From Chara braunii (lineage: Eukaryota > Plantae > Charophyceae): a DNA stretch of 64,000 nucleotides. Position 1 is the stretch's first letter, and every line of letters starts with the position of its first letter. The stretch is taken from assembly GCA_003427395.1 (NCBI GenBank), contig BFEA01000005.1, positions 3,515,278-3,579,277 of the forward strand, given 5' to 3'. The position numbers were made by a program, and so were the translations under genes. Below the pieces are notes generated by a model. It worked only from the letters and a program-made list of their open reading frames with translations, did not search any database and was not told where the DNA came from. Below, piece by piece: positions 4,235 to 64,000 of the stretch.

Positions 4235-4728
4235 CAGATGAAGAGTGAAGTCCTGAGGGTTGAGTGAAGACTCTTGATTGGTACTGGCCATGCTTTTTTC
4301 CATGTGTACTCCCTGAGACTATTACGAGTTCTCATTCTTCCCTCGTTCATTTGCTCTTGTCATTGCTCGAATCAGTCGGTCTTGCTTCTTGCGTTGTTCT
4401 TGCCTGATGATTGTTATCGTGAATGATTCTGTCACAGTTCTAAAAATCAGATTGACATAATTTATGCATGCATGGCACCCCATAATTTTATGATTATTAT
4501 TTGCGTAATTATCTGCTGTTCCGAATCAAAATAAAAGATTCCCAAGACCGGGGATCGGCGAAGAGCGTAATTGAAGGGTCTCGCTCGAAGCCGGACGCAC
4601 ACAACAGGAAGGGATTTGCATTTATTTAATTCATTTTATTTATTGCAACCTCATACAAAATCCTGCGTGACAGCCTGTTGGCTTTCCGGTCGCCCGAAGT
4701 GGCTCGGCTGGAAAAAGTGCGACAAAAA

Positions 4729-4746
4729 TGGCACCGTTGCCGGGGA
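4729..4746 (+). promoter_or_regulatory. Primer-binding site, tRNA-Asp type
   Basis: TGGCACCGTTGCCGGGGA, 4 nt after the LTR end; one mismatch to the Athila-type PBS TGGCGCCGTTGCCGGGGA. Confidence 0.9.
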
Positions 4747-21300: not shown

Positions 21301-22671
21301 AGTGGTCAAACAAGCGTTCAAATAACATCAAATCTGCTCTCAAACAGCGTCTAACTAGCATCCAAGCAGCATCTAACTAGCAATCAAACAATACTCAAGC
21401 ACCAATCAAGGATCTATTATTTGGTAACAATTGTTGCCTGATTCAGTGAGCAAACAGTTGGCTTGATCCGTAAAGGACTTATCAATAAGAGATTCAGCCT
21501 CTTTCAGCTATCAAGCAGCTTGCCAAGCACATGATAGAGATTAACCCCATCACGATTGACCAACTGGTCCTCGACAACCTCAACCGGGTAGCCTCGAGAG
21601 AGTGCTTCCCCTACAAATATGTCTGAATCGATGGTTTTAAGCGTGAAGATCTGTCAATCTTCATTGCTCTCACAAAGTTTGCAGAAGGTACGGTCAAAGA
21701 TCTGCGGATCTATTTAAAGAAAGCGAATGAGGTTCATCCACATTTTGATGCAGTGTGGGCTGCAGCGGCCGGGTATGTGCAGTGGAAAGCTGAGAGGCTC
21801 AAGGCGAACACAAAGCTAGTCTATAGCCTCGAGCCTAAACTTTTCACTGACTATCCCAAACCTTCGGTCCCCTACTATCTTACTGATGGCTCTTATTGGG
21901 GTGGACTGGTGGACCTAGCCAAGAGATACGTATCATTAGCAGAGATCGATTACAACGCAATGACTGAGCCTTCTGAGTTTCCACATCTCAGGAGGGGCGT
22001 TTTCTCTCAGCCCTATCTCCCTACACTATGGGAGGAATTTTGTGCCATGCTTGGCTTCCGTTTTATGGGACTTTGCTGGAAGTTTGGAACTAGTGGGTTT
22101 CAAGTGACTTTACATTCAGAAGCCACAACCTCAGAGAGTACGGAGACATGGCAAGAGGCCTAGACGACAGGCAACAAAGTGACAGATGAAGAGTGAAGTT
22201 CTGAGGGTTGAGTGAGGACTCTTGATTGGTACTGGCCATGCTCTTTTCCATGTGTACTCGCTGAGACTATTACGAGTTATCATTCTTCCCTCGTTCATTT
22301 GCTCTTGTCATTGCTTGAATCAGTCGGTCTTGCTTCTTGCGTGGTTCTTGCCTGATGATTGCTATTGTGAATAATTCTGTCACAGTTCTCAAAATCAGAT
22401 TGACATAATTGATGCATGCATGGCACCCCATAATTTTATGATTATTATTTGTGTGATTCTTTGTTGTTCCGAATCAAAATAAAAGATTCCCAAGACCGGG
22501 GACAGGCGAAGACCGTAATTGAAGGGTCTCGCTCGAAGCCGGACGCACACAACAAGAAGGGATTTGCATTATTTAATTCATTTTATTTATTGCAACCTCA
22601 TACAAAATCCTGCGTGACAGCCTGTTGGCTTTCCGGTCGCCCGAAGTGGCTCGACTGGAAAAAGTGCGACA
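15340..22671 (+). repeat. 3' LTR of element A (~7.3 kb)
   Basis: Begins TGTTG after the PPT and ends CGACA (imperfect inverted termini). The 3' 3.2 kb match the 5' LTR. The start is inferred from the PPT. Candidate TATA box CCTATAAGAAG at ~16989. Confidence 0.8.
17185..17685 (+). pseudogene. LTR-encoded protein (…LKINVEGAKEVEMR…) with an in-frame TGA at 17260..17262
   Basis: ATG ~200 nt after the candidate TATA box; a clear homolog with mostly synonymous changes lies at 40370..40585 (minus). Confidence 0.75.
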
Positions 22672-25455
22672 GCGGTCGATGCAAGGGATTTTAGGGACCC
22701 TTTAGAGACCCCTAATTTTTTCCAACCGTTGTGATGAGAATATCTGTCGAATCCCCGCCAGGGCTCAACCCAAGGTCCAATTTTTTGTATTTCGGGTGGT
22801 CGTTTGGTATGCGGCCGCCCGACAACGAGACACATGCAGTTTTGAGCCAGGGCCACCTTTATTCTTTTTGCGGCACGTGGTGTGAGCGGTTTTCAGTTCT
22901 CGATCATCCGGTATTGTGGACGATGGTATGGGACTGCATTGGGACCATATGGGATCATTTTGGGACTAGGTGGGGCTGTTTTTTTAGATCAGGATGGTCA
23001 TGTTGGTGTGGCTATTATGAGCGAACATGGTGATTGGAGGGGGTTGGACTTGGGCTTAGGTTGGAACTATCCTTGGTGGACGAGGTGTCGTTGGGACTGT
23101 AATGGGGCCACGTAGGACTTGTAAGTGAGAACACCCTCCTCGGGGGCTATCTCGCTTCGGTCCTTGTGGGTGGCCGCTTAGTGTCCTTGTGGACACTTGA
23201 GGAGGACGTGGATCATCATTAGTAGGCAGCCACAACTTGTGAGTTGTGCGGCTGATCTCTTTGGGAGTATTATCTTGGCTTTCTTGAGTGAGCCGGTTCA
23301 AAACTTCACTCAAGGTCAGTTAGTTGACTCAGACTTCCTTTCAGTGGCTTTCACACCTGTGTCAACCTACACTTTGCTTGACCCTGTTTGTTTTGGACGT
23401 TCAAAATAAAAGGTAGAGGATAGTTGTACGAGTCATGTGTGTGAATGAAAAAATCTGACTTAAGTATGAAATTGTACTGGTTCTTTTGAACTTGTTGTTT
23501 TTGCGTGTTGTGCAGGTAGGTAGAAAAATGTTTGCAAATGAGATTGATTATGCTTATTTGAGATGAAGAAAATGATTGTCGCCTTTCTCTCTTTCACCTG
23601 TCTACATGACAAAAATACTTGAATTTTGAAGTGAATAATTTCAACGGGTGTCGCGAAAGAAAACTTGTGAACATATTGAGGATGAAGATAATCAGACTTA
23701 GTTTTTTCCCGATGATTTACCTTTCTAGCCCGAATGACCTTATCTACCTGTACCTGTCCAAATGGTTCTCATTCTCTATGACCTTTATTTATTTTCGTCC
23801 ATGTTACCCTGAACTTAGGAGACGTGAGAATAACTGAAAACTACTCGCAGTTAACACATTCTCTTTCTCTAGGGAGCATCTGGGCGGGGTTCGTTGCTTT
23901 AGGAGCCTACCCCGTTATCGACCTAAAGTGGACTGTTCTACGGGGGGGTATTCTGCCGATTCGGTAGAGATGGCCCGACTTCTTAGATCCGAGTCTTGTG
24001 CTCGGGTGAGGAGGAGTACCCTAGACCACTTCCTAGAGGAAGAGACATGCAACACTTCAAGCAATCCACTTGATCAAGAATCATTCGCAGGACAGTTTGT
24101 CATCCAAGAAAGATTGGAAGCGTATGAAGAAAGGTTTGTGCGTGCTTAATCTTAGGTTGGCGATAGGTTGGAATGAATGGCTTTGGCAGTATATTTCATC
24201 AAGTCAAAACGAAGGCAGCTGATTACCTTGTCGGCTGCATCAATATTATTGTCGGTAACCAACTCCTTGTTGGCTTTTGTTTGATTGTTTTGTGGTGTTC
24301 GACCTAACATGGTCGGACTTCATTTTGACATTATTTTGTTGGATGTTTCAAATGATGATCTGAATTTTTTTTGTTATCATTTTAGATTGGCTATATGTTT
24401 CTGTCGACAATGGTCGATTCCTTATGATGTAAATACATGTGAATGTTATAAGTTTTTTTTGGTTATGTGTTTGAGGAATTGGGACTAATATTTGTGATTT
24501 CACACTTGGTTGAGACCGTCCTAGTCGACCGACGTCTGCTTCGTACTTAGGAGATCAGCGTCCTAAGAAACGAACGACGTTCGAGTCCACTCGGAGTTAA
24601 CCAAGCGTATCTATACTACAACGAACGAGCAAACGTCCCCGCCTGACCTACCTGTACAATTGCATTTAAAAGCTTTTGCACATGGGTAAGTAACTCGGTA
24701 GGAATACTCCTCTTGGGGTGGTGACAGCCCCTTAGGGAGGCAAGATGTGTCGTGTGGAAACCTATCATGTCGTAGGCGACCGAGAGAAGTACAGTTGGCG
24801 CATCCTGCTAGAGCAGCGAAGAGCTATGAATCCCCCCTGGAGGTGGTTATACGCGGCCTAGGCCGCGACCCCACGACCATGACAAAAAAAATAAATAATA
24901 AATAATTCAAAAAATTATGAAAACAAAATATGTTATATCGAAAAATATACTGAACAACTTTTGGTTTGTGGTCATATCCAAAAATTTTACTGAATTTAAA
25001 ATAAAAAAACAGATATGTTTCATAGTTTTTATAAGGAAAAAAAAAAAGTTTTTGCCTCAGGAAAATTAGTTTTTGAATTAAAATTCAAAGGTGAAGTCAA
25101 AAGATAAAATAAAACATTGCGCGATTGAGATCTCGAAAAGATCGACAACCCCGTATTTTTTGTTGTTTTTTTTAGAATTGTTTATAGTGTAAAAAAAGTC
25201 CTGAAAGTTGTGGTCGCACCCAACCGCGACCAGAGTCGTGGTGGCCGTGATCATGGCCGCCCTCCGAGCTCGCGTCCCATTCGCGGGTGTTACATAGGCG
25301 AAGTGACGATTCGACTGTCGTCGTCTCGACGATTCGCGGGATGTTGTGCATCATTCCCAAATTGTCCCCTTGATTTTATTTTGTTTTACTCCAGTGTGAC
25401 ATGGCCAGGAGGGCTCCCTCGCTTTGTAAAAAGACGGGAGCCGATGCGCTCGACA
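22672..25455 (+). repeat. 5' LTR of a second gypsy family (B1), apparently interrupted by element A
   Basis: 22832..25455 aligns with 38228..40365 (about 85% by eye); ends …GATGCGCTCGACA and is followed by a PBS. Confidence 0.85.
24824..25297. mobile_element. MITE, 474 bp, with CTATG...CATAG termini
   Basis: Absent from B2 (empty site GCGAAGGG at ~40208); 8-bp TSD GCGAAGAG (24816..24823) / GCGAAGTG (25298..25305). Confidence 0.85.
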
Positions 25456-25457
25456 GG

Positions 25458-25475
25458 TGGCGCCGTTGCTGGGGA
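25458..25475 (+). promoter_or_regulatory. Primer-binding site, tRNA-Asp type, of family B
   Basis: TGGCGCCGTTGCTGGGGA, 2 nt after the LTR end. Confidence 0.88.
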
Positions 25476-27712: not shown

Positions 27713-28897
27713 TTTTTCGGAAATGATAGTATCAATCAAATAGATTTCATTTTGGAACTAGTCGGAGGGCTTTCGATACCATTCTGAGAGACTAAATATT
27801 GTTTTGAGTGAACGCCAGTGGGATGATGCTAAGACCATCATGAAAAGGGTTCCCCTTAAGTTGAAGGCTTGCAAGGGCTAGACTTGGGTCCAAGTTCTGA
27901 TGGTATAGTGATGTGAATGAATTTTGTTTCATTGACGAAAAATTACAGTTTGACTCCGGGCGAATGTTTGATCTGTTGAGTATTGTAAATTTTTGTCTCA
28001 CATAGACATTTTATGAGAGTTTTAGTTTTGATGGTGAACGACGGGGATGTCGTTCAATGAGGTTCAGGAATGTTGTCGGCAAATACCTTGACATTTGTAT
28101 TTGCAGGGGATTTTAAACATCGGATGTTATTCGATTCTTTCTTTCAATTAAAGGACTTGATGAGACTGGCGTTTGCTAAAAGTTTATTCAGACTTGACCT
28201 ATGACTGAGAGACTAAAAGTTTTTGAGCTTTAATCCGGACACATGTGGCGTACAAGAGTAATGACAGTAACTGACAGTGTTTCACATTTGTCAAGGTCAC
28301 AGAAGCACGTGAACGTGAGAACGCAAAGTTAAACCTATGCTAGAGCCTAAGTAGGTTAAAAAGAATGGTCGCGACATGTATGGGGCCGCAATGTGGGAGG
28401 AATATGAAGTTTTTTTTTTTTTTTTTTGCCCGCTATCGAGAGCATCGGTCCCACGTAGTGCGGGACCCTCCCGGCCGCGTCACACAGGAGTTGGTCTAAA
28501 CTCACGATACACAAGGAGCTTCCGCAAGCCGCTCTGGCCGAGTGCGCCAACCATACCTCTCGCCAACCCTTACGACAGGATAGGGCCAACGCGAGATATA
28601 ACTTACCTCCACCTGCGAGAGTTATCACCTCCCTCCGATGGGCGTATCCCCTCCAAGCTACCAGTCCACAGTAGGAAAGTTAATCAGTTGCAATCGCAGA
28701 GGTGGACCAGCCGAGGGCGTTTCTAGTTCGTTGTAGCATAGAGGTTATGTGTGGTCCCACACCACTATCAGACCCGCATGCCAACCGACGCATTGGGGGG
28801 CTGAAGTCTCAAGCGCCATTCGTCGCCGGTCAACTAGGACGCATCTCATTCACCAGGCGTTATACCACACTTAAAACACAAAAATAAAACACACTGT

Positions 28898-37144: not shown

Positions 37145-40100
37145 TGTAGGGAGTGATGGGACTGCGTCTGCTCGTTTTTGAACAGGCTGCAGTCTGGCTG
37201 GGTACAACCATTCCCTGGAGCATGTGGCCTGCGGGGAAGGCCAGATGCCTCCGGGAATGGAAGGTTCTAGTTCCCCGAGGGGAACATCAATGATTCTGAC
37301 CCTTGATGGTAGGTCCGAATCAAGGGCTCAGAACAACTACGTTTTTTTGGTTGTGGGCAAAGCAGCTAGCCACATGCCTTCGGCTGGTTATAAAAGCCAG
37401 CTCCCCACCCAGCAGCCTCACACTTGTGATAGTGCTGCTGGGCCATTCACTTGAGTGAATGCTGGTTGGCTGCTACTGTGGGGCGGTGCTGCCGGAAAGA
37501 AAGGAGACGAAGTGTTGTTGGAGAGGAGAGTAGTGGTCTGCAGGATAAGAGGAGGTGCTGCTGGTGGAGAGCTGGAGGTCTCCAAGATGAAGGGGGACGC
37601 TGCCGGAGGAGTGCGGGCAGCGCAGCCATAGCGAAGGGTTGGAGGCTCCCTGCCCCAACCTCGCGCTGGTGATGTGGCGGTGAGGTTGTGCTAAGGGTCA
37701 GCAGCGTGGCAAGGCATACCTTATTTTGTGGGGTTATGCCGCAGAGATTTCGACACGACGGCAACATGGTGGGGGAGATGATGTCGGACTGTCGCCGTAG
37801 CGTCAAGATCTTCCTAAGGGAAGGTGCTGTCGGATTTGTCGTGCACCGCCGATGTCTTTTTTAATCTGAGTGTGGGGAGGTGTTGTTCGATCATCGGCAC
37901 GGCAACGGCAGTGTATCCGGTAGGGTTACGCTGCCGAAATTTTGACTCGGCCGCAATTTTTCTTTGGGGGAAGTACTCTTCGTTCGACGGCATGATAACC
38001 GCAACGTATTCAGCAAGACAGTTATGTTGTCGAATTTACGGCGCGGCGAGGGACAATTCCGCTTTTATTTTTTGTGGTGCACAGCGGTTGTGGTGGATTC
38101 CAATGTGACCTAGAGGTTGGGCTGGCACTAGTGCACATTTGGGATCGTGCGGCAGTGGTGTGTGGGCCGACGGCATGAAGAAAGTGCAAAGTGAGTACAC
38201 ACCGTAGTGATTATTGGGCACACGGTACATGCAATTTTGAGCCAAGGCCACCTTTATTTTTTTTGCAGCGCGCGGTGTGACTTGTTTCTAGTTTTTGACC
38301 ATCCGGTATTGAGAACGATGGTATGGGACTGCATTGGGACCATCTTGGACCATTTTGGGACTAGGTGGGGCTGTTTTTTTTAATCAGAACGGGCGTGTTA
38401 GTGTGGCTATTGTGAGCGGGCATGGTGATGAGAGGGGGTTGGACTTGTGCTTAGGTTGGAACTATCCTTGGTGGACGAGGTGTCGTTGGGACTGTAGTGG
38501 GGCCATGTAGGACTTGTAAGTGAGAACACCCTCCTCGAGGGCTATCTCGGTTCGGTCCTTGTGGGTGGCCGCTAAATGTCCTTGTGGATACTTGAGGAGG
38601 ACATAAACCATCATTGGTAGTCAGCCATAACTTATGACTTGTGCGACTGATCTCTTTAGGAGTATTACCTCAACTTTCTTGAGTGAGCCGGATCAAAACT
38701 TCACTCAAGGTCAGTTGGTTGACTCAGACTTCCTTTCACACATGTGTGAACCCACACTTTGTTTGACCTTGTTCGCTTTCGACGTTCAAAATAGAAGGTA
38801 GAGGAAAGTTGTACAACTCATGTGTGTGAGTGAAAAAGTATGACTTGAGTATGAAATTGTACTAGTTTCTTTTGAACTTGTTGTTTTTGCGTGTTATCCA
38901 GGTAGGTAGAAGAATGTTTGCAAAGGAGATTGTTTATGCTTATTTGAGATGAAGAAAATGATTGTCCTCTTCCTATCTTTCACTTGCCTGCATGACAAAA
39001 GTACTTGAATTTTGAAGTGAATAATTTCAACGGGTGTCGTGAAAAAAAAATTATAAACATAATGAGGATGAAGATAATCACACTTATTTTTTTTCCAATG
39101 ATTTACCTTTCTAACCCGAATGACCTTATCTACCTGTACTTGTCCAAATGGTTCTCGTTCTCTATCACCTCTGTTTCTTTTTGTCTAGGTTACCCTGAAG
39201 TTAGGAGATGTGAGAATAACTGAAAACTACTCGAAGTGAACACATTCTATTTCTGTAGGGAGCATCTGGGGCGGGGGTTCGTTACTTTAGGAGGTGGCCC
39301 CGTTATCGATCCAGAGTGGACCATTCTACGGGGGGGTACTCTGCCGATTCGGTGGAGACTACCCGACTTCTTATATTCGAGTCTTCTGCTCAGGCGAGGA
39401 GGAGGAGTACCCCATTCCACTTCCTAGAGGGAGAGGCATGCAACACTTCAAGCAATGCACCTGATCAAGAATCATTCACAAAACAATTTGTCATCCAAGA
39501 AAGATTGGAAGCGTATGAAGACGAGTGTGTGCGTGCTGAATCTTAGTTTGATGATAGGTTGGAATGAATGACTTTGGCAGTGTGTCTCATCAAGTCAAAA
39601 CTAAGGCAGCCGATTACCTTGTCGGTTGCATGAATATGATTGTCGGTAGCCAACTCCTTGTTGGCGGTTGTTTGATTTTTTTGTAGTATTTGACCTAAGA
39701 GGGTTAGATTTCGTTTTGATATTATATTGTTGGATGTGTTAAATTATGATCAGAGTTCTTTTTGTTATCATTTCAGATTGGCTATATGTTCCTGTTCACT
39801 ACGGTCGATTCCTTATGATGTAAATATATGTGGATGTTATAATGTTTTTTTGGTTATATGTTTAAGGGACTAGGACTAATATTTGTAGTTTCATACTTGG
39901 TTGAGACCGTCCTAGTCGACCGACGTTTGCTTCGTACTTAGAAGATTAGCGCCCTTAGAAACGGACGACGTTCGGGTCCACTTGACATTAACCAAGCGTA
40001 TCTATATTACAGCGAACGAGCAAACACCCTCGACTGACCTACCTCTGCAATTGCATTTTAAAACTTTCGTATGTGGGTCAACAACTCGATAGGGATACGT

Positions 40101-40365
40101 CCCTAAGGGCGGTGACAACCCCTTAGGGAAGGCAAGATGTGCCCTGCGGGAACCTATCTTGTTGTAGGGGACTGGGGGAAGTACAGCTGACGCACCTGGC
40201 TAGAGCGGCGAAGGGACGATGCGCCTGCCACCGTCTAGACGGTTCGCGGGATGTTATGCATCGTTCCCAAGTTGTCTCCGTGATTTTGTTTTGTTTTACT
40301 CCTACGTGACATGGCCGGGAGGGTTCCCTTGCTTTGTAAAAAGATGGGAGTCGATGCGCTCCACA
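37145..40365 (+). repeat. LTR B2 (either a solo LTR or the 3' LTR of element B)
   Basis: 3' 2.1 kb homologous to B1, ending …GCGCTCCACA. Putative start TGTAGGG follows a purine-rich tract. Flanks are AGGT / ACGT. The 5' boundary is uncertain. Confidence 0.65.
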
Positions 40366-42700: not shown

Positions 42701-44170
42701 TATCATAGGCCCAGTAACAAGTTGCGGGTTGATGGGTCAGGTACTCCAAGCGATGGCGGTTGTTGATCTTGCGAGACCCATGGCACTGCCCACTTAGCAA
42801 CACTTAGCAATGATTGTTTCGATTTATTCTTATTTATGTCGCTCCTCAGTTCATATTGCCAGCATAAATTTCTCTTGTTTATTTCGCTCCAACATGAATT
42901 TCGGCTTCGTTACAAAAGTGAACAATCAAAAGGTTCACTTTTAACGAAATGTGTATTCGACGGAGATTACAACCTGTCGCACCACCATCCCCAAGATTAG
43001 GTACGACTACTGGGGAAGTTACCGCAAATCGACACATGCGCCTCTTTTCTTTGTAGCTCGCTCTTCCGCCCTTTTAATGTACTGCACTTGATCGAGTATT
43101 CTGCCGAGGTTCGCCAAAGAACGCCTCGCTTCCTCTCATTCGATAGGATGAGCAACGCACCCTCCAACAAGTAAGTCTCCACCCCGCGGATCGCGTCACG
43201 CTATTTTCATCGAGAGGATGGACAAAATCGGAATGAATCTTCCCCCAGAATGCGGGGAGATTATCCGTGCCCCCGTGCAAAGGTCGCGCGGCATCAACCT
43301 ATGAAACCGCGCGTTCATTGAACGCAGGTTTTCCGTTCAGAAACTGAACGGAATGCACGCGCGTGCAATGAATGCGACCGAACGCGGAGTTCAATTCCGC
43401 AAGGGAAAAAAAAAAGAAAAAAAAAAACTCGAAACATTCCGAAAAAAAAAATGTTATGAAGAAAAATAAAATAAACAACATTTGTATGGTCACGGAGAAA
43501 AACTCACGCAAGAGCAGAGTTCGTCAACACAATTTCAAAGAAGATGAGTTAACAAGACGTCAACACATATTCAAAGAAGATGAGTTAACAAGTACAATCG
43601 TATGATATTACAGGTACACCAACATCGTTCCACCGCTCCCAGAAACCACCATTCGTACCGCAAACCCAACGTCCGCTGTCATAGTCGTCAACATCCCGGA
43701 ATGTCAACGCTACTAATTAGCAGACCCCCGTAAGAGATCGAGTAGATTGCACTAACCAAACTTATACGGACGAAGGGACTCTACGTAACAACCGCTACAA
43801 ACAAGTAGAACCAAAACAAGTCCCGTTTTCGGGCCCTTGCGGACCGGTACGGGTACCCATCGCGCCTCCGTCATTATCGAAAGACCAGCTAAACAGGTAG
43901 AACCAACAAAAACTAGCTAAACAAGCAGAACCAAAAAAAGAAGACTCCATTACCGGGCCCTCGTGGACCGGTACGGGTACCCTTCGCACCTCCGTCATTA
44001 TCCGAAAGCTGGCCACTGAAACCTTAACCATACAAAATCCGATTGCAATACTGTCCGAACATACACAAAAAAGACTACAAAGTAGTACACATCAGAACCC
44101 TGTGCGAGCATGAAAATCAGTGTCAGCAAATAGGACTCCCTGTCTGACAAGCAAACTACAATTTTTTTCC

Positions 44171-47055
44171 TCATTCCAACAACCTGAGCGTCTGTTTCCA
44201 GACCTCATCCCTCTGAAAGGCAAATCTTTGCAGTACTCTTCCAAAGAATTCCATCGGGCAGTCTTTCAATCTTAACTCCCGTTTCAAGGATAACACTCGT
44301 CGTGGGATCTCACTCCGGATAGACGTGTTTTGGTCAATTCGGTGCGGATAACTGCTAATAGTTGTGCTCTTCTGTTGTTTGGTTCCCCAAGATAAAAAGG
44401 ACTGTCCATTTTTTATCTCCAACTCACCGTCACACCATATGCTATGCTCATTCCTTGACATTTGAACACATCCCAAATATGGAAAGTTGTCACGACTTTT
44501 TATAATGCAACCTAAGAAGTCAACCGCTCTAGCCAATGACGCTGTCACCAGAATCCATCGTCAGTTCGCTTGAGGCTCAGTTCTTTTTATAATGCAGACC
44601 AGATCCATCGTCAGTTCGCTTGAGGCTCAGTTCTTTTGGGTAACAACATTCAAACCCCTTTAACACTCTTTCAAGTGTCGTCCCAGCCAATGACGCTGTC
44701 ACCAGAATCACGTCATTAACAAGCCGCACACCAAACACCTGGCGGTCATACTTCCCCAAGCTATTCACAAAGGAATACTCAGCGTAGGCACAAAGTATAC
44801 AGGCTAGCGGGGGGCTTGTAGTCTTACCCATCGGGAGGCCTACATCCTGTCTGAGGAGGACCCCAGTAGCAAATGTGTAGGTATGTCGAAGTTCGATTTG
44901 CACAAATTTCAGCATATCCTGAAGATGCAGCATTCTCCAATGATCACTGCCCGTCGTTTTTCCAAAGGAGCATCCCTTTCCTCTGCCGTTAACCCGCACA
45001 AACTGACGACCTTTCCTCTGATGAAAGTCCACGACCCACTCGACAGCTTTCAAAATATCCTGATGTGGAAGGCGACTAAACATGTCTTTTATATCAAAGG
45101 CATGGATAGTCACTTCCGGCTATAAGTCAACTTGGTGAATCCTTTTACTGATCTTCTCCAATCTCGTGACTAGCTAAGAGACCGCAGGAAGGTTAAAATG
45201 CCATCCGGCAGGCAGTTTTGACAACAAAAAGTTCAGACCCTTGGCGACCACTCTACCCATGCGAATCATTGGTTCGCTATAGGTAGGACAGATGGGCCGG
45301 TAACGCTTTAGGTCCTTGTGTTTTGGAATCACGTACGCTGCGCCTACCTTCCCATTCCTATCCCATCTGGCAAACTTACTCAAACCTGCACGCTCCACAT
45401 CCTCACGTATTTCACGCAAAACCACGCTCTCAGGTACCGACATAATTCTATACCCAGGATTGCGAACAAAGGTGCCCATCATCGCATTATAATAAATGCT
45501 AGGACACATGACCAAAGTCTCGCCAGGGTTACGCTCAAGAGGGGTCAATACGAGCCCGTCGAACTGTTGCTTCACCTTTTTCACTTCGCCAATCGTCAAT
45601 TGCCCAGTTGAAATACTTCCATCACTCAAACAACCAGTTAATGCATCATCAAATATCGAGGGCAAATTGCCCTGAAAATTTCTCCACGACCGAAAACCAT
45701 CCAAAATCTTTGTCCGCAACAGGCATACGCGATCAACAATCTGAGCTTTCGGAATATTATTCGCATTTACCAACGGAGGGTGATCTACCTGATCCTTGCC
45801 AAGGCGAAAATGCACGTGCCCATCCACTCGCAGGTAGGGCAATCCTGCACAATGGCAGGTAAGCACCTGCCGAGTTGCAGCAACTCGGTGGTTGTGCAAA
45901 AATCCGGCAATTGCCTGGTTCTTCTGCCAGACTATCCGGGTCTTCATACGTGCATGACGCAAGAAACAAGTAGGAAGGTCACAACTCATCAGCGAATCAT
46001 TAACCAGCTTACGAAGTTGACAAAGCCTGATCCTATTGTCAAATTTGACTTTAATCAACAGATCAGAACTTAGACTGAGATCAAACTTCTCCAAGAATAC
46101 TCGAGCCAACAGACGACGCAGGTATTTCCTTGTTGATTTTTTGGAAAAATATTTTACAACTTTATACACACGTAACAAGGAACGCATACCACATTTATAG
46201 AAATCCGATAGTGTCCTAGGGTTCTTCAGGAGGGAGATGAATACCCTCTTCAAATACGTGCACCGTGGTTTCCAAACCTTCACCTATTCGATCACCAAAG
46301 AACCCCCGTTTTCAAGCAAAGACTTGCACTGCCGAAGATGTTGCTTGCCCGATTTAGTCAACACTACCGATGCCCCAAAGGCAAGTGACGCACCTGCCAA
46401 ATATTCCCCCCACTCGAATACACCTCAAACTTACATTACCTGCATCGACATGTTCGCTCAAAATCTGAAAAAGACTAAGCCTCCAATCTTCGTCATTACC
46501 TGTACGAAATCGCACTGGCGCGATCGTATGTGGGCTATCGGCAACCAGTCCCGTTCGTTCTCTTTCCCTCCTTCCTCTACTACGTGTCTTACCAGGACCA
46601 CCACGAGAGTGCTTAGTGCCCGAAGTGTTAAGATAGGGTGACCACTAACGAATATACACCTCCTCCAACTTCGTCAACTCATCACTGGCTATGGAGTCAA
46701 CGGGAATCAGAACATAATTCCCTATGCCAAAGGTGCTCAGCCACCTATAGAAATGGTTTTGGCTTCGAGTACGGCATGCGTACAAATGTTCCCGCCAGCG
46801 AACGTTGATGTGTCTAGTGGTTTTTTCCACATATTGTGACTTACAATACGGGGGAATAGCAACGTAAACACAATTGGTAATATTAACGAAATCACTACCA
46901 AACTTCTCGTAGAGCCTCACCCATGCACTAATGCACTTCCTCGTCCATCGAAACACTCCATGTAATGACAATCGAACGACAATCAATCGGAGGAGTTCCT
47001 CCACCCCAAAATCAATACAGGTACTGGTTGCCCTCCACTTCGACAAACAGTTCAA
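44171..47055 (-). pseudogene. GIY-YIG endonuclease plus reverse transcriptase, fragmented
   Basis: CVYVAI…QYVEKTTR…RWREH…E; IPKHKDLKRYRPI; AFDIKDMFSRLPH; QDVGLPMGKTTSPPLA; RLVNDVI (degenerate xxDD motif). Confidence 0.9.
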
Positions 47056-47088
47056 AATCTCCCAAAGATCGGCAATCCCAAAGCCGCT

Positions 47089-48316
47089 TCACCCCTCGGC
47101 ATCCTCCTTCCTTTCCTCCACGGCTGTCTCAGTAATCATGACCTGCGGCGGAGGGGCTGCCTCCTCCTCATGGTCCGAGCCATATGCTTCATACGTATGA
47201 TGCGCAACTATATCAAAAATCGCTTCGAACTTACCGTTATAGGGAATGTCTTCGTCCTTACAGATGTTCTGTAGCACGATCGCATCCAAGGACTTAAGTT
47301 CGTGCAAGACTTGCTTCTCGTACTTGAGTCGTCCGATAGTACCAATAGCGGCCGGTATCTTCTTCCGTATCGACCCCGGAGTCTTCTGCGGTGACAGCAC
47401 GCTTATCTTGCCTTTGGACTGGGCTCGAGTGATTCTCCCCGTCAATTGCCCAGGCTTCATGCTCGCTCTCTTCGGTGTATGTTTGGGAGGCAATTCCATC
47501 GGTGGGCTTCGTTCGAAGACGGGTTCCGCTCCTCTCTTCCGTTTCTCGGAGAGACTCAGGTTACGTGTGCGAGGACTCAATTCATCCGTCTCACTGCTGC
47601 TTGCATTAGTTTCCGGATCAGAGTGGCTGGTACCAGCCACCTTTTGTTTACCCTTCAAGACGGCTTGGCACAGTTCTCCAATAGCGCTCCGGAGATCGCC
47701 CTTGACATCTCCACGCAGCTCTCCAACGCGCAATGCAACTTGTATGTCCAAGTTCTTATTCATCTCCTCCAACCGCTCGGCCTCCTTACGTGTTTTTTCC
47801 TCCTTCTTTTTCTTACGCTCCTTCTCCAATCGTTCGGCTTCACTCCGCTCCCTTTCCTTCTCCGCTCGTTCTGCTGCTTGCTTCTTCTCGATCTTCCTCC
47901 TCTCTTTATCGGCCTTCTTCTGTTGCTCACGTTCCACAAATTGACACACGGCGGCCACACTCTTCCCGATCTCTGCTACCTTCGAGTGTATACTGTCGCC
48001 AGAGGAGGATGCTTGTCGGAGATACCCTCGATCAAATCGTGAAGGTGAGTGTGACCGGCCTCGAAAAGAGTCCGACGACGTTGCCGGTCGAGCCTGTCTG
48101 CGGGGTTGTGGGCATTGATTGGCATAATGCCCAGGCTCCCCACAATTAAAGCATGTAGGTGGGCCCCTCCTCGGTCCACAATCGTAGGCTCCGCGCTCAC
48201 CCCCACTGTAGTCACGCCGATCACCTCCCTACCCTCCACGCTTATCACCGCGATTGATTCTATCAAAATCTCTCTGGTCCTATCCAAATTCCCTACGATC
48301 ATCATTTCCCGCCATT
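47089..48316 (-). pseudogene. PLE ORF1: CCHC zinc knuckle, coiled coil and a possible SAP/HeH-like C-terminus
   Basis: Minus-strand translation near 48110..48165 gives PTCFNCGEPGHYANQC; E/K/R coiled coil; C-terminal LKSLDAIVLQNICKDEDIPYNGKFEAIFDI. Confidence 0.75.
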
Positions 48317-49105
48317 TCGCCAGTTGCTCACAACGGAGGCTTCATAACCATGTACACAGACGTCCCCTCATTAGACGATAAAACGTAACACGTAGTACGT
48401 AATACGTAACTACAAGGTAATTGTGCTCACTTATCTCAGTATCGTGACTCCGAGACAGTTCACACGCGTCGTCGACAGTATGGTCACGGAGAAAAAATCA
48501 TGCAAAAGCAGAGTTCGTCAACACAATTTCAAAGAAGATGAGTTAACAAGACGTCAACACATATTCAAAGAAGATGAGTTAACAAGTACAATCGTATGAT
48601 ATTACAGGTACACCAACATCGTTCCACCGCTCCCAGAAACCACCGTTCGTACCGCAAACCCAACGTCCGCAGTCGTAGTCGTCAACATCCCGGAATGTCA
48701 ACGCTACCGATTAGCAGACCCCCGTAAGAGATCGAGTAGATTGCACTAACCAAACTTATACGGACTAAGGGACTCTACGTAACAACCGCTACAAACAAGT
48801 AGAACCAAAACAAGTCCCGTTTCCGGGCCCTTGCGGACCGGTACGGGTACCCATCGCGCCTCCGTCATTATCGAAAGACCAGCTAAACAGGTAGAACCAA
48901 CAAAAACTAGCTAAACAAGCAGGACCAAAAAAAGAAGACCCCATTACCGGGCCCTCGCGGACCGGTACGGGTACCCTTCGCACCTCCGTCATTATCCGAA
49001 AGCTGGCCACTTAAACCTTAACCATACAAAATCCGATTCCAATACTGTCCCAACATACACAAAAAAGACTACAAAGTAGTACACATCACAGCCCTGCCTG
49101 AGCAT

Positions 49106-49590
49106 TACATCCAAATTCGTTACCAAATTGGAAATAAAAATAGAAAACAGAAAATAGAAAAAAGTAAAAAGAGAATTGAAATTAGTGAATGCGCGAGTAC
49201 ATTTGTGACACCGCCATCTTTGGTGATTTGTTTTTGTTTTTTGGAAGAGCCAAATGCCCTAAAAATTCACAGATGTGTATTTCACATTATAAAAAACTCA
49301 TGACAAAAATGTAAAAAAATAATATATTTTTCTAGGTGGCGAAATAAAGTGAAAACAGAAAATAAAAAGTAAAAAAATGAGTGGGCGAACACGATTTGAC
49401 ACCGCCATCTTTGGCGATTTTTCTTTTTTTTTTGCCTTAGCATAATGACTCCAAAATTAACAGGCATGTACCCCACATCATAGAGAACTCATAAAACAAA
49501 AATCAAAAAAAAAAAGTTATTTTTAGGCATCGAAGAAAAAATATTAATGAACGCCATTCAATTTTGAACGCGAATTTAAATCCGCGTTCA
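49106..49590 (-). mobile_element. Remnant of a MITE related to 25679..26383, probably the target of the Penelope insertion (other half possibly ~43299..43483)
   Basis: 49380..49425 is close to the reverse complement of 25905..25950; same internal duplicated GACACCGCCATCTTTG unit. Confidence 0.6.
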
Positions 49591-49624: not shown

Positions 49625-52600
49625 CGTACACTTACTCTGGAACTGCACCCATATTAGCATATAATGAGAATGTGCCTTCCGCTAAGATACGGGAAAGTAT
49701 ATCAAAGTCTCATGCAGAGGGTCGTGCAAGCACCAATCTCCAAATGTGTAAAATGTGAATGAACCTTCCACTCGAATGTGGCCAGGTGCAACCCCTCGAT
49801 GACCACTCACATCGAAAGGGGTGGTATTGGGACGACATAATTAGTAACAAGTGAGGAAAAGCAGCGAACAGGATGAACAGAAAGTGCGACAATGATCACG
49901 AGGAGTAAATTCCGCGAAGACGGCTAGCACGACGGGCATGGCCAGCATGAACACCCTCACGACGACCTCCCCGCGAAGATTGGCCGACACCACAACGAAC
50001 TTTCCTCATGAAGTCCTCCTAAAGCGAGTATACACGTTTCATCTCCTCTACTAACCTCCTTTCCCCCTCTCCCTTGTCAAACCGGGCTCTACGCCCGCGG
50101 TCGTACTTACCAAACGTAAAAAAGTGAGAACGAATTTACCGCTCGAACATAGCCAAATGCATCTCCTATTTCCCTACAGCTCCTATCGCCTTCTGTAAGG
50201 TACGTACTCTGCCCCCTCACACTCTTGTTTTCCTACATGCTCCCTCATCTCCCTCTTTGATCATCACCTTCATCTTCTTCTCCTCACCTTCGACTCTTTC
50301 ACTTCCTTCTCAATCCCTTTCTGTCAAGCCAGTTCCTAAGTCGACCGCAGCTTAATACGCTGACACTAAGCAATCCGATGCTCAAGTGCCAAATCCGGCC
50401 CACGCATTCGACTCGCAGCATGTCAAAACCCAAAAATTGAGTCTTCATCCACTCGATTATGTCAAGAAACAGACGAGGTATGAGTTAACTCCCTTGCCAT
50501 ATCTCTATTCCTAACATCTCGGCGCACACCTTTTTTCCTCCAACTCCTATCTTACTAATTTTCTACTAAAACTAACATCAAATTTGGGCTCGCCATAGCC
50601 CAAAACCTCGGATTTGAGTCTTCACTCGCCCGTTTCCTTCTTCCTCTGACCATCATCTTCGTCTCCACTTTTAAATGCACCTAGGGTGGGTCTGCGCCTA
50701 GGTTGATTCGAACTTCCTGACCCCTTCATGCTCCTCCCGCTTGTTTGATCGTCCTCCGCTTCGCTGCTTGGTCTCCAGTTCATTCCTACCTTACCTTACC
50801 TACTCCAAGCCTTAGCACACTCTCTGAAGTAGGAGAACCGGGGTGAAGATCAACACCGTCATGATAATAGGCGCAATGCTACTACCACAATTAGCAACAC
50901 CGTGGTCACAACGAGAGCCCATCTGCCAGTGATTCACCTGCGGCCCCGATCTCAGAAGCCTCCTCGAACTTGACGACAAGGTCATGCACCGCCATGATAA
51001 TCTTTAGTCCGCCTTCTTCCTCATCATCGTCTTCCCTCCGTCCTTTTAATCCAACCGTTGACGACACTTGTCACCTGGTTGGCACCGAACCGCGCGCTCA
51101 CCCAGACACCACGAAGGGTGTTGACTGATATAGGCGGCAACCCGGTGGTCATGGAAATCGAAACCTGCTAAGGAGTGTGTTAACAACTCACCTGGCGAGT
51201 CGGTCAATCCCCGAAATGCAGATGGCACTGGGGCGTGCGGCCTCGGTCGTCGTGGTGATTTTTTATGTAACAACAAGTACCCAGACGCAACTCTTGCTGC
51301 AAACCCTTCAGCGTGCGCCCAGGTGAAGGCGGTCTCAATGCAAATCTTGGTGGTACCAGCGATTTTTCAAATGGGAACTTTGAAGACCCAAGTGAAAAAG
51401 GGTTCCCTATGATCGGTTGCTGCCTCCGCCTTGGTGCCCCCTGGTCCTCGCCCAAGCATAGTCCACCATCTCACGGGTCTCAGTGGGCATGCTCACACTC
51501 AAACCTCTCACAGCAGATCGTGGTTGGCGGACGGTGCACCCGCAGAGGGCCCATGCCACCAAGGTTTCATCCGCCATGTGGGTTAATCACCCACCGGTTT
51601 GTGCGCACGCTGAAATCCTCAATCCATGTTTCAAGACGAGCAAGATAGAGGAGTTTCGCCAACATCCCGAATACACAGGGACCTGAGCGGGGCCATCAAT
51701 AAAAGTGCGTGCTCACTGTCCTCGACTGCCATGGCGACCACTTCGCGGAGATTGCAACCGCCAGCCCCTTCACCCCACGCTGGCTGGCACCCCGCAAACA
51801 GCCTTAGTACCGATGATGGTGCCGCGTCCTAAAAATGAGACTGGCAAGAAAAATAAAAATACAAGGAAGAAAAAAATAAAAATACAAGCATCGGGAACTG
51901 GTGCTTTGGGGAAGGGAGACTATAGACGCCCCCTCTTAGCTCCATCGACGGGGGCCCACAGATGGGCCCACAACAAAAACCAAAGGGAATAACCCGTTGG
52001 GCCCTCAACCCCTTGACATCTTCAACCACTCCAATGCTCCATCCTCGCTGGTCGCCGCCCTCGATCCTCGTACCTCCTCCTTGAAAGTCCAATGCCGGAG
52101 GCCCATAGCTGAGTCTAGCACTAACGGAAACCCAAGAAAGGGGCACTGCTACGCATGTAGGTCCGCTAGACACTCCAATATCTCTTTTTGCACCTACCGA
52201 CTAACCCCACGACCGTCAAGCCCTGCGCCTACCGCGCGACGGCCCCGCCTGTCTTACGCTCCCATTACTGTCCAAGGGCAACATTGTCGTCGACGTCGTT
52301 CTCCCGCATAAGCACACGCACGTCTTGGTCAGAACAACAAAAAGAAAAACGCTTAGTCTTATTTTAATCAAAGTTAGAAGTTTGGTCGGTGAAACACAGA
52401 CTCTATAACATCAATAAGAACAACGTCATGCGCGCCTTAAAACTGCGCGCCCACACACTCTCTACTTCTAGTCAACCATTTAGTCAACGTGAACAAAACA
52501 CAATCGAGACTCGCATGGTGTATTCAAATTTTGAACAAAACTTATTTTATGTCACTTGCAAAAACCAGGGCGGATACCCTTGTAAGGGTACTTGCCGACA
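49625..52600 (-). repeat. Truncated LTR E, a diverged relative of the 5' part of LTR C
   Basis: 52425..52600 matches 35470..35646, including the terminus …GGATACCCTTGTAAGGGTA…CCGACA; patchy similarity further inside. Confidence 0.75.
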
Positions 52601-57289: not shown

Positions 57290-57925
57290 GTACGGAGTTC
57301 GTCTGTCCACTTCATCCACAAAAAAGGACTCGGGCAACGGGAAGACTGTTGAGGGACCCGGTCAAGGCAACCCATTGGTGAGCAATGGACCTGAGACATG
57401 AACGATGGGTCTACATTAAGGACCGTACGAAGGACGACACCTCAATTGGGTGGAAATGGGAAAGAATTGAGGAACCAAACTTGGGGACGCGCCCCCTGAA
57501 CATGGAGGACGTCTGTCCACTTCATCCACAAAAAGGACTCGGGCAACGGGGAGACTGTTGAGGGACCCGGTCAAGGCAACCCATTGGCGGGCAGTGGACC
57601 CGGAACATGAACGATGGGTCTACACCGAGGACCGTATGAAGGATGACAGCTCAATTGGGTGGAAATAGGAAAGAATTTGGGAACCAGACTTGGGGACACG
57701 CCCCCCGAACACGGAGTACGTCTGTCCACTTCATCCACAAAAAAGGATTCAGGCAACGGGGAGAATGTTGAGGGACCCGGTCAAGGCAACCCATTGGCGA
57801 GCAGTGGACCCGGGACATGAACGATGGGTCTACATTGAGGACCGTACGAAGGACGACAGCTCAATTGAGTGGAAATGGGAATGAATTGGGAAACCAGACT
57901 TGGGGATGCGCCCCCCGAACACATG
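57290..57925. repeat. Three ~210-bp tandem repeats within the LINE ORF1 region
   Basis: GTCTGTCCACTTCATCCACAAAAAAGGA at 57301, 57511 and ~57720. Confidence 0.93.
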
Positions 57926-59568: not shown

Positions 59569-61413
59569 GTGAAGGACCGTTTCTGGAACCAATGCAGGAA
59601 GGCAACGAACCTAGACTTACGCTCCTTGAATGTGAACGGTCTGGCCTCGTGCAAACCGGAGAAACAAAACGCAATCTGGGATTTAATGAGAGGAGTGGGG
59701 GATAGGCATTGGCCGGATATAGTGTGCGTCCAGGAAACACACCTGATGGACACCCCCGAGCACAACTTCATCCACAAAATGATCTGGCCGTATAAGGTCT
59801 TCAGGGCCCATGCCCCAAAACCTGGAAGCGCAGGGGTGGCCATCTAGATTCCCCTTGAGTCACAGGCAGACCCGGTACACTGGGTGGTGGACCAGGATAG
59901 AGGTCGATGGGTGTCGATCCTCGTTATGCAGGAACTTGAAATTGTATATATACTGTGCATCTATGCCCCCAACACCGTAAGCGAGAGAACAACTTTCTTT
60001 GAGAGCATTAAAACGCAAACCCTGAATGTGGTTTCGGTCATTATAGCATGAGACTGCAATGGAGCCTCATACCGATGGATGGACAGATGGCGGACGCCCT
60101 CCAAAGCCCCGGTGCATGTGGAGGAGGATGAACGGATAATCAACGATCTATGTCTTTCACTAAATGTCTTCGATTCCTTTCGGAGGCTAAGCCCAGATAC
60201 AAGTTTCTACTCATGTTTAAGGAAAACTGAAACTGAGAGTCAGTCGAGATCCCGGATCGACTTAATCTTGATCTCAAAAGACATGGGGGGATCTCTGCTT
60301 CTGGCAGCGTTTCTGCCCACTAGCCCCTACCCGGGCCTTGATCACAAAATGTGCACGATCATTTTGTCCTTTCGTAAGAAACCGATCGTGGACCTAGTTT
60401 TTACAAACTTAAGACCCCTACCTTGTAGCAGAAAACCTTTTAGAGTTACATTACGGACTGCTAGACGTGCTGGCATATGCAAAAGCAATACTTTCAACAT
60501 AAAATAGACTAGTTTAACAACGGATTGTTCTACCTAGGTAAAAAATGTCAAGAATATTTCAAACTTTTGGCAGTAAGGAAGTATCAACAGGAGATGGAAA
60601 TACACCAACAAGTGCAGAAACTTAAACACCAGGATCAGTGTGACAGTGTCCAACATCTACAACCAACAGAACATTATGAGATACAAACGCTACGACGACT
60701 TCATACCTTCGCCACACAACGTTGGGGACGTACACGGATAAGAGGACGACTGACAAGGCATCAAACAGAAGGAACAATGGACAAAAAAATATTTAGCATG
60801 GCCCGTGTACGTTCACACAGAACAACCATCGAGCCGCTATACGATCCGCAAACCAGACACCAAGATATCATCGCCGCCTCCTCTCATGCACGCAGATAGC
60901 AAGATCTTTCTTCCAGAACCTGTTCACATCAACGTGCCCGACAAGAAAGGAACCAGGGAGAAAGAAATTTGGGACTTCTTAAAACCAATCGGACAAGACC
61001 CGGACATGACAGTAGAGAACAAATCTGGATCGCCCCCTCTCTAAGGAGGAAATCAGGCCGGTGATGATGTAAATGGAGGAGGAGAAGACACCGAACATTG
61101 ATGGGCTTTTAAAGGAATTATGAGATATTTTCTCGACTCAGATGGCCCCAAACCTCATGGAGTTTTATCGGCAGGTGTGGGAAACAGGGCGGATGGGGGA
61201 GTTGGTGGGGCAGGGCGTTCTCACATTTTTGCACAAAAAAGGAGACAAGATTGATGTTCGGAACTATCGGTGAATAACCTTGCTTACAGTCGTGTATAAA
61301 AATTAATAAAATGTTAGCGAAAGCCTGAAAAACAGACCAATCCCGGTTTTGGACGATATTATCCATCTGACACAAACCGGGTTTATAAAAGAGAACAGGA
61401 TTCAGGATAACGT
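59569..61413 (+). pseudogene. LINE ORF2: AP endonuclease and start of RT
   Basis: SLNVNGL, VCVQETH, AGVAI, IYAPN, SRIDLILIS, DHK; then LHKKGDK…NYR*ITLL…YKI and QTGFIKENRIQDNV. Confidence 0.92.
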
Positions 61414-64000
61414 TGTCACGCGCGGCGGTCCCACTCCCAGACGCAAAGTAAAATTTTGTGTCGGACCTCAGGGTCGTGTCACGCAGGAGTCTTTTTGTCA
61501 GTTCAATGAAAACACCACTCCGACCGTGCGCGCGTGCTATACCTTTCGCGACTCCCTACGACAGGTTAGGGATCCCGCGAGGTACAACATACCTCCACAT
61601 GCGGGAGTTGTCACCATCCCTTAGGTGAGCGTATCCCTGCTGAGCTACTGACCCACGTGCGAAGGTTTTTACATGCAATCGTAGAGGTAGGTCAGCCGAG
61701 GGCGTTTTCTCGATCGCCGTAGCATAGGCATACGCGTGGTAGAACGCCTTAAGACTGACCCGTATATCGTGCCCCGAGGTGCTAACTTCCCCGAACCGAC
61801 TATCTAATCAGGTCGACCTTTCCGGACAGTTTTCCACGCTTAGTTAACTAGGACAATGACTTTATGTCTCCTTTGTTAACCTTATGTGAAAAGCCAGAGT
61901 CAAGCCCCTTTGTTATCTCTCATTCTCAAAAGAATCCTAGACGAATGACTTCCTAAGCTCTAACGAGCTTACGATCTCATTCACATATATATATATAACT
62001 GTGTATGTAAGTCAGGGGAGCTGAATGAGCGGCACACCTCAAATTCACAATTGCGGTGTCCGTGTCCGAATATCCCAGACGATCCCAAATTCAGAAGACA
62101 GTTCAATGCCCAACACCTGTGCAGATGCAAGAAATCACATACAAACATACAAATGCAGACACAGAATGCGCTACAAGCATCAACCTTTAAACCATTCATA
62201 GCAAGTCTCTCACGCCCCAAAACCTTGAAAACAACATTCCTTCCTAAACCTGACTCCCTTTACCCCAACCCTTCACATTTTCAAAGACCTCCGAGTGTGA
62301 TTTGGACAATTTAGGCATAGATACAGGGGAAGATCCATCTGTTTCCTTCTTAGGTCTTGTCTTAAGTGTGGGCATCAAGCCATGTGGAAGTTGAGTCGGA
62401 ATTTTACTGACCTGGTATCCAATGATAACAAAATTTGCAGTTCCTTACGGTTCTTCCGTAGTCCTCTCCAAGCGAGATGAACCTGTAAACACACCACAGT
62501 CTGAAAGAATCTTAACATCCTCTCTCCGATGTTACGATCTAGAAAACCTCTTCTAGACCTGTGACCCAAATTCGGTGCTCATCGTCGACCTACCGCCTAA
62601 CTTCTATCATGATCAAACTTCCAGTCCACTGCCCTGTTGGTCTAGGCAATGAACAGAATTCATTCCCAACCCCTTCGTTACAGCGGTTCTACTTAGTTCT
62701 CTTTTTAACAGGTTAACTACAAACCTCATGCCTTTAGTAATCCCAAGCAATACCCTCCATTCAACTCAGAGAGGAATCTCATGATGAAGATCAAATCAGA
62801 ATCTCAAAGGGCAATAAGTCTCTCTGGTAAAAATCTCACCTATCATTTCCTCCCTAGAATCAGATATTAGTGAGTTAGCAATGGATTGAATCATTTATAT
62901 AGAAGTAGATATTCGGTGATAGATTGATCAGGATACACTTAAACTTTTGTTAGTATCAGGCTTTGAGAGAAGATGATGATAAGGCAGGATTCTTAGAGCC
63001 TAGCTCCTCTTACCACCTAATATATATTGTTAATATGGTGATAAGGCAGGCTCCTTAGAGCCTCGCTTCTCTTATCGCTTAGTATATAGTATTACGGTGG
63101 TAAGGCAGGCTTCCCGGAGCCTCGCTCCTCTTACCACCTAGTATGTACGTTAATATGGCGATAAGGCAGACTTCTTAGAGCCTCGCTTCTCTTATCGCCT
63201 AATATATAGTATTACGGTGGTAAGGCAGCCTTCCCGGAACCTCGCTCCTCTTACCACCTAGTATGTATGTTAATATGACGATAAGGCAGACTTCTTAGAG
63301 CTTCGCTTCTCTTATCGCCGAGTATATAGTATTACGGTGGTAGGGCAGGCTTCCCGGAGCCTCACTCCTCTTACCACCTAGTATATATGTTAATATGGCA
63401 ATAAGGTAGGCTTTCTAGAGCCTCGCTTCTCTTCTCGCCTAGTATATAGTATTACGGTGATAAAGCAGGTTTCCCGGAGCCTCGCTCCTCTTACCACCTA
63501 GTATATATGTTAATATGGCGATAAAGCAGACTTCTTAGAGCCTCGCTTCTCTTATCGCCCAATATTTAGTATTAGGTGGAAGGGCAGGCTTCCTCGAGTC
63601 CCGCTCTTCTTACCACCTAGTATATATGTTAATATGGTGATAAGGCAGACTTCCTAGAGCCTCGCTTCTCTTATCGCCTAGTATATAGTATTACAGTGGT
63701 AAAGCAGGCTTCCCGGAGCCTCGCTCCTCTTACCACCTAGTATATATGTTAATATGGCGATAAGGCAGGCTTCTTTAGAGCCTCGCTTCTCTTATCGCCT
63801 AGTATATAATAGTATAACGGTAGTAGGGCGGACATCCCGGACCCTCGCTCCTCTTACCACCTAGTATATATGTTAGTATGGCGATAAGGCAGGCTTCCTA
63901 GAGCCTCACTTCTCTTATCGCCTAATATATAGTATTACGGTGGTAAGGCAGGCTTCCTGGAGCCTCGCTCCTCTTACCACCTAGTATATATGTTAATATG
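61414..64000 (-). repeat. 3' end of an LTR (family D, minus strand) inserted in the LINE; extends beyond the window
   Basis: Abrupt switch to TGTCACGC after ACGT; shares the TCCTGCGTGACA motif and the ~200-nt module with LTRs B and C. Confidence 0.85.
62975..64000. repeat. Higher-order tandem array: ~60-bp hairpin units alternating A/B (~119-bp dimer), about 17 units
   Basis: A = GGCGATAAGGCAG(A/G)CTTCTTAGAGCCTCGCTTCTCTTATCGCC; B = GGTGGTAAGGCAGGCTTCCCGGAGCCTCGCTCCTCTTACCACC. Confidence 0.95.

Follow-up and report, generated by a model that had tools for sequence, protein, structure and literature searches.

Four copies of a module of about 320 nt, predicted to fold into a multi-arm RNA, lie near the 3' ends of long terminal repeats (LTRs) in a 64,000-nt stretch of DNA from Chara braunii, hereafter the window. 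The preliminary description had proposed an undescribed cis-acting structured RNA here. Compensatory changes, a fixed place before the LTR end and the lack of any match in Rfam support this, and we conclude that the module is real: a structured cis-element, apparently not catalogued before, that belongs to a known functional kind. Based on its position, its anatomy and its complementarity to tRNA, we tentatively suggest that it acts in cis as a packaging or dimerisation signal and helps to place the primer.

Nested eukaryotic repeats make up the window. Element A is the sole element in it with gag-pol and extra ORFs; it retains remnants of protease, reverse transcriptase (RT) and RNase H, and its LTRs, 94% identical to each other, end at 4724 and 22671. 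A protein search with its RT returned one relative and no viral locus. One ORF lies within the LTR of element A and is weakly paralogous to ORFs 3' of the primer site (tblastn E 5e-6 to 3e-3), and the two element A ORFs that were scanned gave no Pfam match. The 5' LTR of element A also holds an insertion with a near-perfect long hairpin at 3051-3162.

The module is carried by three other elements, B, C and D, whose LTRs are several kb long. In element B, the 5' LTR (B1) and the 3' LTR (B2) form direct repeats; the B1 LTR ends at 25455 and the primer site starts at 25458, as in the 3' region of an LTR. The LTRs of C and D end in like manner to B1, without a primer site. The LTR of C ends at 28434 and B2 ends at 40365. 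A tblastn search with the element A proteins detected no pol in B, C or D, and we assign these three putatively to the Ty3/Gypsy type on the shared primer site and LTR-end motif. A candidate target duplication for C at 34803-34809 was dropped, as the alignment of another repeat crosses those positions.

Table 1. Positions in the window of the module copies, the parts of copy D, the LTR-end motifs, the primer sites and the ORFs of element A
Feature	Position	Strand	Remarks
Copy D, whole	61509..61829	-	basal helix to basal helix (~320 nt)
Copy C	28525..28842	-	
Copy B1	24514..24820	+	5' LTR of element B; most decayed copy
Copy B2	39905..40210	+	3' LTR of element B
D central arm	61629..61735	-	outer helix 61735-61730/61634-61629
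D central arm, side hairpin	61712-61697	-	small
D central arm, helix 1	61695-61687/61656-61648	-	
D central arm, apical stem	within 61629..61735	-	irregular, with invariant AUUGCA
D hairpin F	61595..61628	-	family-specific stem, invariant tip GGUGAYARC
D hairpin G	61535..61589	-	long stem with compensatory changes, near-invariant CCUA/UAGG top, loop ending UGUCG
LTR-end motif TCCWRYGTGAC in D	61478..61489	-	
LTR-end motif in C	28479..28490	-	
LTR-end motif in B1	25389..25400	+	
LTR-end motif in B2	40299..40310	+	
Primer binding site of element B	25458..25475	+	Asp/Asn-type as in Athila
Element A, 5' LTR end	4660..4746	+	motif 4660-4671, primer site 4729-4746; no module
Element A, 3' LTR end	22607..22671	+	motif 22607-22618; no module
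Element A ORFs	3611-4231, 5086-5238, 5461-5835	+	copy at 21627-22179

The four copies were re-checked in the window and stand at the places and on the strands first reported. A two-gap pattern matches four times in the window, compared with 0.00 matches in 100 shuffles, and a covariance model found no fifth copy there, the LTRs of element A included (next score 8.4 bits). Two points of the preliminary description had to be revised. The conserved block had been put at about 200 nt; it spans about 320 nt in copy D, which adds a 5' arm and the basal helix. The four copies had also been counted as separate cases, and they amount to three lineages. B1 and B2 are a single lineage because both LTRs belong to one element; they match at 86% identity over 2 kb, and the module is no better conserved (79-87% identical) than the other parts (83-93%). 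Such differences are what decay after insertion would be expected to leave.

BLAST among the B2, C and D regions gives a single match per pair, which is the module: C and D share 72% over 254 nt, B2 and D 73% over 227 nt, and B2 and C 63% over 344 nt. Overall, the identity of the module between LTR families is 63-74%. The description of these LTRs as otherwise unalignable thus holds by BLAST, but not for a shared 12-nt motif close to the LTR end. The placement near the LTR 3' end was correctly noted, the module stopping 95 nt (D), 91 nt (C) and approximately 155 nt (B2) before it; in B1 approximately 475 nt, absent from B2, separate the module from the LTR end. The same strand, the similar distance to the LTR end in three families and the absence of a visible tail speak against an independent SINE or MITE.

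A common multi-arm fold fits all four copies. In brief, a basal helix closes about 320 nt that include a 5' arm, a central arm and the hairpins F and G (Table 1). Of the 228 cells in the alignment of the four copies, 89.9% pair, and the junctions hold many invariant unpaired nucleotides. In helix 1, D and B2 have GACCUAC/GUGGGUC where C has GGUCCAC/GUGGACU; these are the two double changes originally reported, and B1 breaks two pairs of this helix. The stems of hairpins F and G differ in sequence between the families and keep their pairing.

Double changes occur at 7 of 57 pairs, compared with 2.6 ± 1.2 in shuffles (0 of 500 as high) and 0-4 with slid partners. It should be noted that this count covers three lineages and that the test is partly circular, because the structure was drawn from the same copies; we regard the result as encouraging and not as proof. 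For two of the seven, located in the basal helix, the alignment probably puts D out of register, and D also pairs in another register; one more (B2, helix 4) is probably decay. Four double changes are firm, with helix 1 and the lower stem of G contributing two each. The folding z of single copies is 0.0 to -1.1, that is, they are not more stable than shuffles, and the common fold costs 5-25 kcal/mol above the minimum of each copy. Such values are expected in decayed copies, yet they give no support for a strong fold.

Two genomic runs of the same organism were matched to 61350-61950 at 80% likeness and gave 5006 and 4616 contigs. In run X1 the summed depth, which is not a copy number, was 180,936-313,482 on 61602-61706 (the core), 11,738-27,836 at the LTR end, 725-1559 on the upstream D LTR and 426-465 outside the LTR. 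Since the depth on the core is about 200-fold that on the upstream D LTR, many more LTR families than D are likely to share the core. Eight of the 11 joints listed are single contigs that hold the core together with the LTR-end region or motif, with unlike sequence between them, and these contigs look as other LTR families would be expected to look.

The contigs also bear on the fold. Fourteen variants reach at least 14%; three fall in unpaired places, and at the 11 in modelled pairs nine keep or make a pair and two break one when set against the partner letter of D, namely 61589, an A-U pair in the other three copies, and 61680, which is uncompensated. Pair-keeping transitions have a baseline of 68 of 123, so that nine of 11 is only mildly above it. 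All four mismatches in a 66-pair model of D become pairs with the genome-wide variants; part of this model was drawn after the contig variants had been obtained, and we treat the variants as partly independent evidence for the fold. The partner changes of helix 1 (61651, 61652) are not among the variants at or above 14%, and C-type reads fall off there as loose ends. Among loose, unlinked read ends, a fourth family shows yet another pair type in helix 1. RNA reads matched at 10 of 8.9 million and 347 of 16.7 million, on both strands and with only 12 at 95% likeness or better. They agree with low-level transcription of some carriers and are uninformative on strand or ends; there was no pile-up of starts or ends among the 357 reads, a weak result as most come from other families.

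The sequence G-GUGA-Y, said to be kept throughout, is present in all four copies, and the tip of hairpin F reads GGUGAYARC in each. It can be drawn as a 7-nt loop or as a GUGA tetraloop that has a bulge on its 3' side, with energies (7-nt loop/tetraloop) of -8.8/-9.2 in D, -14.4/-8.9 in C, -18.4/-17.0 in B2 and -13.5/-16.7 in B1, where another 7-nt register also reaches -16.7. The GNRA tetraloop proposed earlier is therefore a fair candidate, but the 7-nt loop comes close to it in stability in D, B1 and B2 and surpasses it in C. The UGUCGUA called conserved holds in D, C and B1, whereas B2 reads UGUUGUA.

When tip F is open, it can form a run of 5-6 bp with loop G in all four copies, compared with 3.6% of random loop pairs. 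Departures in this kiss are G-U wobbles, with no clear double change. As a tetraloop, tip F could instead dock on the near-invariant CCUA/UAGG stem of G, as GYGA loops favour CU:AG receptors. In either form, as a kiss or as a tetraloop, the models make a contact between tip F and hairpin G likely. The central arm holds a 10-nt self-complementary stretch that is intact in C and B2 and is restored in D by a 92% variant; the variant at 61680 improves this palindrome and breaks the monomer stem. No double changes stand behind it, and wobble palindromes of 8-12 nt are frequent, with 7-12 of them in D, B1 and B2. Because such palindromes are common by chance, we take the one in the central arm only as a lead.

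The primer sites of elements B and A are both of the TGGCGCCGTTGC type, and the two in the window are alike. We take the full 18 nt to be those of tRNA-Asp. A 12-nt motif, TCCWRYGTGAC, stands 45-64 nt before all six LTR ends, those of element A included; its pattern matches seven times in the window, with 1.7 expected, and six of these matches are the LTR ends. A primer site of the TGGCGCCGTTGC type has been assigned to tRNA-Asp and/or tRNA-Asn (preprint 10.64898/2026.03.20.713144, in the excerpt consulted).

The LTR-end motif is antisense to the anticodon loop and the 3' anticodon stem of tRNA-Asp, with approximately 8-13 consecutive bp to the fetched anticodon arm. Duplexes of all six LTR ends with that arm reach -23 to -30 kcal/mol, values for a viral stand-in tRNA without a shuffled control. 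Conversely, of 23 viral loci retrieved with a pattern made from the LTR-end motif and a T-loop word, 21 hold tRNA-Asp(GTC). Complementarity to the tRNA is thus present outside its 3' 18 nt, as judged with stand-in tRNAs from viral contigs; among those contigs there was no eukaryotic tRNA-Asp with a matching 3' end. In the consulted excerpt of PMC3906980, the matching tRNA 3' sequence is given only as a small RNA with a terminal CCA.

From its sequence, the LTR-end motif is likely an extended primer-binding element that is more widespread than the 320-nt module. Element A has the same primer type and lacks the module, and the module must therefore be dispensable for some Asp-primed elements. 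Tip F also resembles a partner of the primer: with G at 61608, the majority letter at 66%, it reads GUGACAG, the complement of the anticodon loop of the fetched tRNA-Asp genes. In C and D, six letters of the tRNA-Asp anticodon arm recur in loop G. Tip F further shows GAC (GAU in copy C), and both are Asp codons; the tip may, however, be closed as a tetraloop. An Rfam scan of copies D and C gave no match to the T-box model.

Searches for known relatives returned none. With Rfam 15, no copy in the window matched any family at the gathering score or at E<=10; D alone gave two chance matches at E 3-6 and C alone gave none. Rfam gave no match to hammerhead, HDV, twister or group II intron domain I, the window lacks CTGATGA..GAAA, and a suspected likeness to group II intron domain I and HDV was dropped for lack of an Rfam match. 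In metagenomes all 98 pattern matches failed to extend (best E 0.08). Viral contigs gave no match to the 3' pattern and 14 chance matches to the 5' pattern, GTDB genomes gave one chance match to the 5' pattern (best E over both collections 0.16), and the best distant BLAST match in plasmids and phages was at E 4. These scans used exact patterns on collections with few eukaryotes and are therefore silent on other algae and plants. A full-text literature search found no covarying RNA fold for plant-lineage Gypsy LTRs; the repeat annotations of the Chara genome paper, outside the scope of that search, could bear on the novelty of the module.

We suggest the following working model. If the module lies in U5, as we assume, it would be part of the genomic RNA's 5' leader, shortly before the primer site. 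Tip F would dock on hairpin G, either by a kiss of 5-6 bp or with its GUGA tetraloop against the CCUA/UAGG stem; both partners could belong to the same RNA or to two RNAs that form a dimer, and the 10-nt self-complementary stretch of the central arm could extend such a dimer. Gag/NC may then bind the folded module. The primer tRNA-Asp would anneal at the primer site; pairing of its anticodon arm would involve the LTR-end motif and perhaps tip F, where it would take the place of the look-alike loop G. A point against the model is that packaging signals of retroviruses are mostly known from 3' of the primer site, and the module lies upstream of it.

A bolder version of this model, which we consider doubtful, is an RNA switch that captures tRNA: a loop with an Asp codon would be held shut by the element's own anticodon mimic, and the primer tRNA-Asp or a second genome copy would replace the mimic, so that dimerisation and packaging are coupled to primer loading. 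If true, the module would represent a new class of large structured RNA, with many LTR families and thousands of copies in one algal genome.

Several other explanations have to be weighed against a packaging and priming signal. The preliminary description had offered an IRES or a packaging/dimerisation signal, and of the two the latter fits better. As an IRES or translational control element, the module would use the GUGA loop and the anticodon-like hairpin G as viral IRESs do. In D, B1 and B2 the energies allow a GNRA form of tip F, and element A does have extra ORFs in its LTR and leader. An IRES serving an ORF-filled leader fits poorly with that same element, which has the multi-ORF leader and no module. 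Moreover, no AUG stands at a common place 3' of the module (the first AUG comes 10-144 nt into the stretches examined), B, C and D have no long ORF after it, its place is ahead of the primer site at a large distance from any gag, and no Rfam IRES matches it. We consider an IRES unlikely. Equally unlikely, in our judgement, is an RNA export or stability element that helps a very long, uORF-rich, unspliced transcript to leave the nucleus or escape decay. LTRs of several kb, the size of the module, its multi-arm fold and the possible kiss would suit such a role, and the mouse IAP and MusD retrotransposons reportedly have RNA transport elements, that of MusD with a kissing loop. An export element would leave the complementarity to tRNA-Asp and the fixed distance to the LTR end unexplained.

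The module may also have no function as RNA, being an old LTR-end sequence spread by recombination, with the helices as chance or by-products, or one kept for a role at the DNA level such as protein binding, a promoter or a 3'-end signal. The unremarkable folding z, the few lineages and the plain decay between B1 and B2 are in line with this. Against it stand the double changes, the stems of F and G that are rewritten yet paired, the genome-wide majority letters that restore pairs broken in D, and the further helix 1 pair type of the fourth family (unlinked reads). Taken together, these two variants are slightly less probable than the IRES or export readings. A new ribozyme or processing element, acting in self-cleavage or 3'-end formation like the hammerheads in the LTRs of retrozymes and in Penelope-like elements, is very improbable. 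It would account for the many invariant unpaired junction nucleotides and the possible tetraloop-receptor contact, which is a hallmark of large ribozymes. It is opposed by the lack of an Rfam ribozyme or intron match, by the absence of the hammerhead core pattern from the window and, weakly, by the lack of any pile-up of starts or ends in the 357 RNA reads, mostly of other families.

Packaging and priming signals have been mapped in retroviruses and in yeast Ty elements. The module could show how RNA and primer are chosen by elements with giant LTRs, and how B and other non-coding elements make use of proteins supplied in trans. The genome likely holds thousands of diverged copies, a ready source for a deep alignment, and the module itself, at a defined length of 320 nt, lends itself to probing. 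Annotation of these LTRs would gain a sensitive marker as well.

The window contains several other features. A Penelope-like element with terminal repeats 97% identical occupies 43484-49105 on the negative strand; within it, at 44.2-48.2 kb, a zinc-knuckle ORF and a GIY-YIG-like ORF precede an RT-like ORF. It fits the description of Chlamys-2_cBra of Chara braunii in the excerpt consulted (PMC8557442). Two diverged copies (61-72%) of a repeat at 33524-35646 and 50415-52600 include degraded pieces of large-subunit rRNA in both orientations; the repeat is possibly a mobile element with captured 28S rRNA. Related AT-rich elements at 25788-26258 and 49095-49540, in opposite orientation and 75% identical, are probably MITE-like, as is the hairpin insertion in the 5' LTR of element A. 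The 3' half of a U6 snRNA-like sequence lies at 36017-36076 on the positive strand (35.7 bits, below gathering), and a stretch starting with TGGCGCC at 36869-36885 on the same strand may be the primer site of another element. Tandem arrays are found at 62973-64000 (61/120 bp, upstream of copy D), 27435-27710 (31 bp, inside element B), 57292-57922 (210 bp) and 40857-41403 (174-187 bp). A short inverted repeat at 42664-42700, beside an N gap and a 98-nt duplicate, looks like a Nextera junction adapter and is probably an assembly artefact.

Among known systems, the plant non-chromovirus Gypsy elements Athila, Tat and Ogre are alike in their multi-kb LTRs, extra ORFs and TGGCGCCGTTGC-type primer site (PMC6317226, 10.64898/2026.03.20.713144). 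In rice Retrosat2, U5 is better conserved than U3 and R (PMC3485330). What the consulted excerpts describe for these elements is short junction motifs or U5 conservation, and not a covarying 300-nt fold.

The predicted anatomy of the module recalls the core encapsidation signal of MoMLV (DIS-2, SL-C and SL-D), in which a palindrome is combined with two cross-kissing hairpins, one of them with two loop forms (PMC3247676). The module likewise has a self-complementary stretch followed by two conserved hairpins whose tips could cross-pair, one of which may take two alternative loop forms. In contrast to the GACG of MoMLV, its tips are GUGACAR and ...UGUCG, its place is within the LTR, ahead of the primer site, and its size is three times greater. 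No sequence likeness to the MoMLV signal, as presented in the excerpt, was seen; the resemblance is one of predicted anatomy.

In HIV-1 the A-rich loop of U5 and a further U5 stretch pair with the anticodon loop and stem of tRNA3Lys (PMC3185550). The Chara elements are similar in that sequences upstream of the primer site are complementary to the anticodon loop and 3' anticodon stem of the primer. They differ from HIV-1, as the excerpt describes it, in the Asp-type primer, in having the site twice (tip F and the LTR-end motif) and in carrying an anticodon look-alike loop of their own. The cis-acting RNA of Ty1 and Ty3 comprises a multipartite primer site, extra tRNA-pairing boxes, a 5' pseudoknot and PAL sequences (PMC4974528), and the module is comparable as a predicted RNA structure of LTR retrotransposons close to the primer site, for which additional pairing with the tRNA and palindromes are likewise proposed. 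According to the excerpt, the Ty1 structure lies in gag, pairs with the T and D arms of tRNAiMet and is specific to its family, whereas the module is common to families that are otherwise unalignable.
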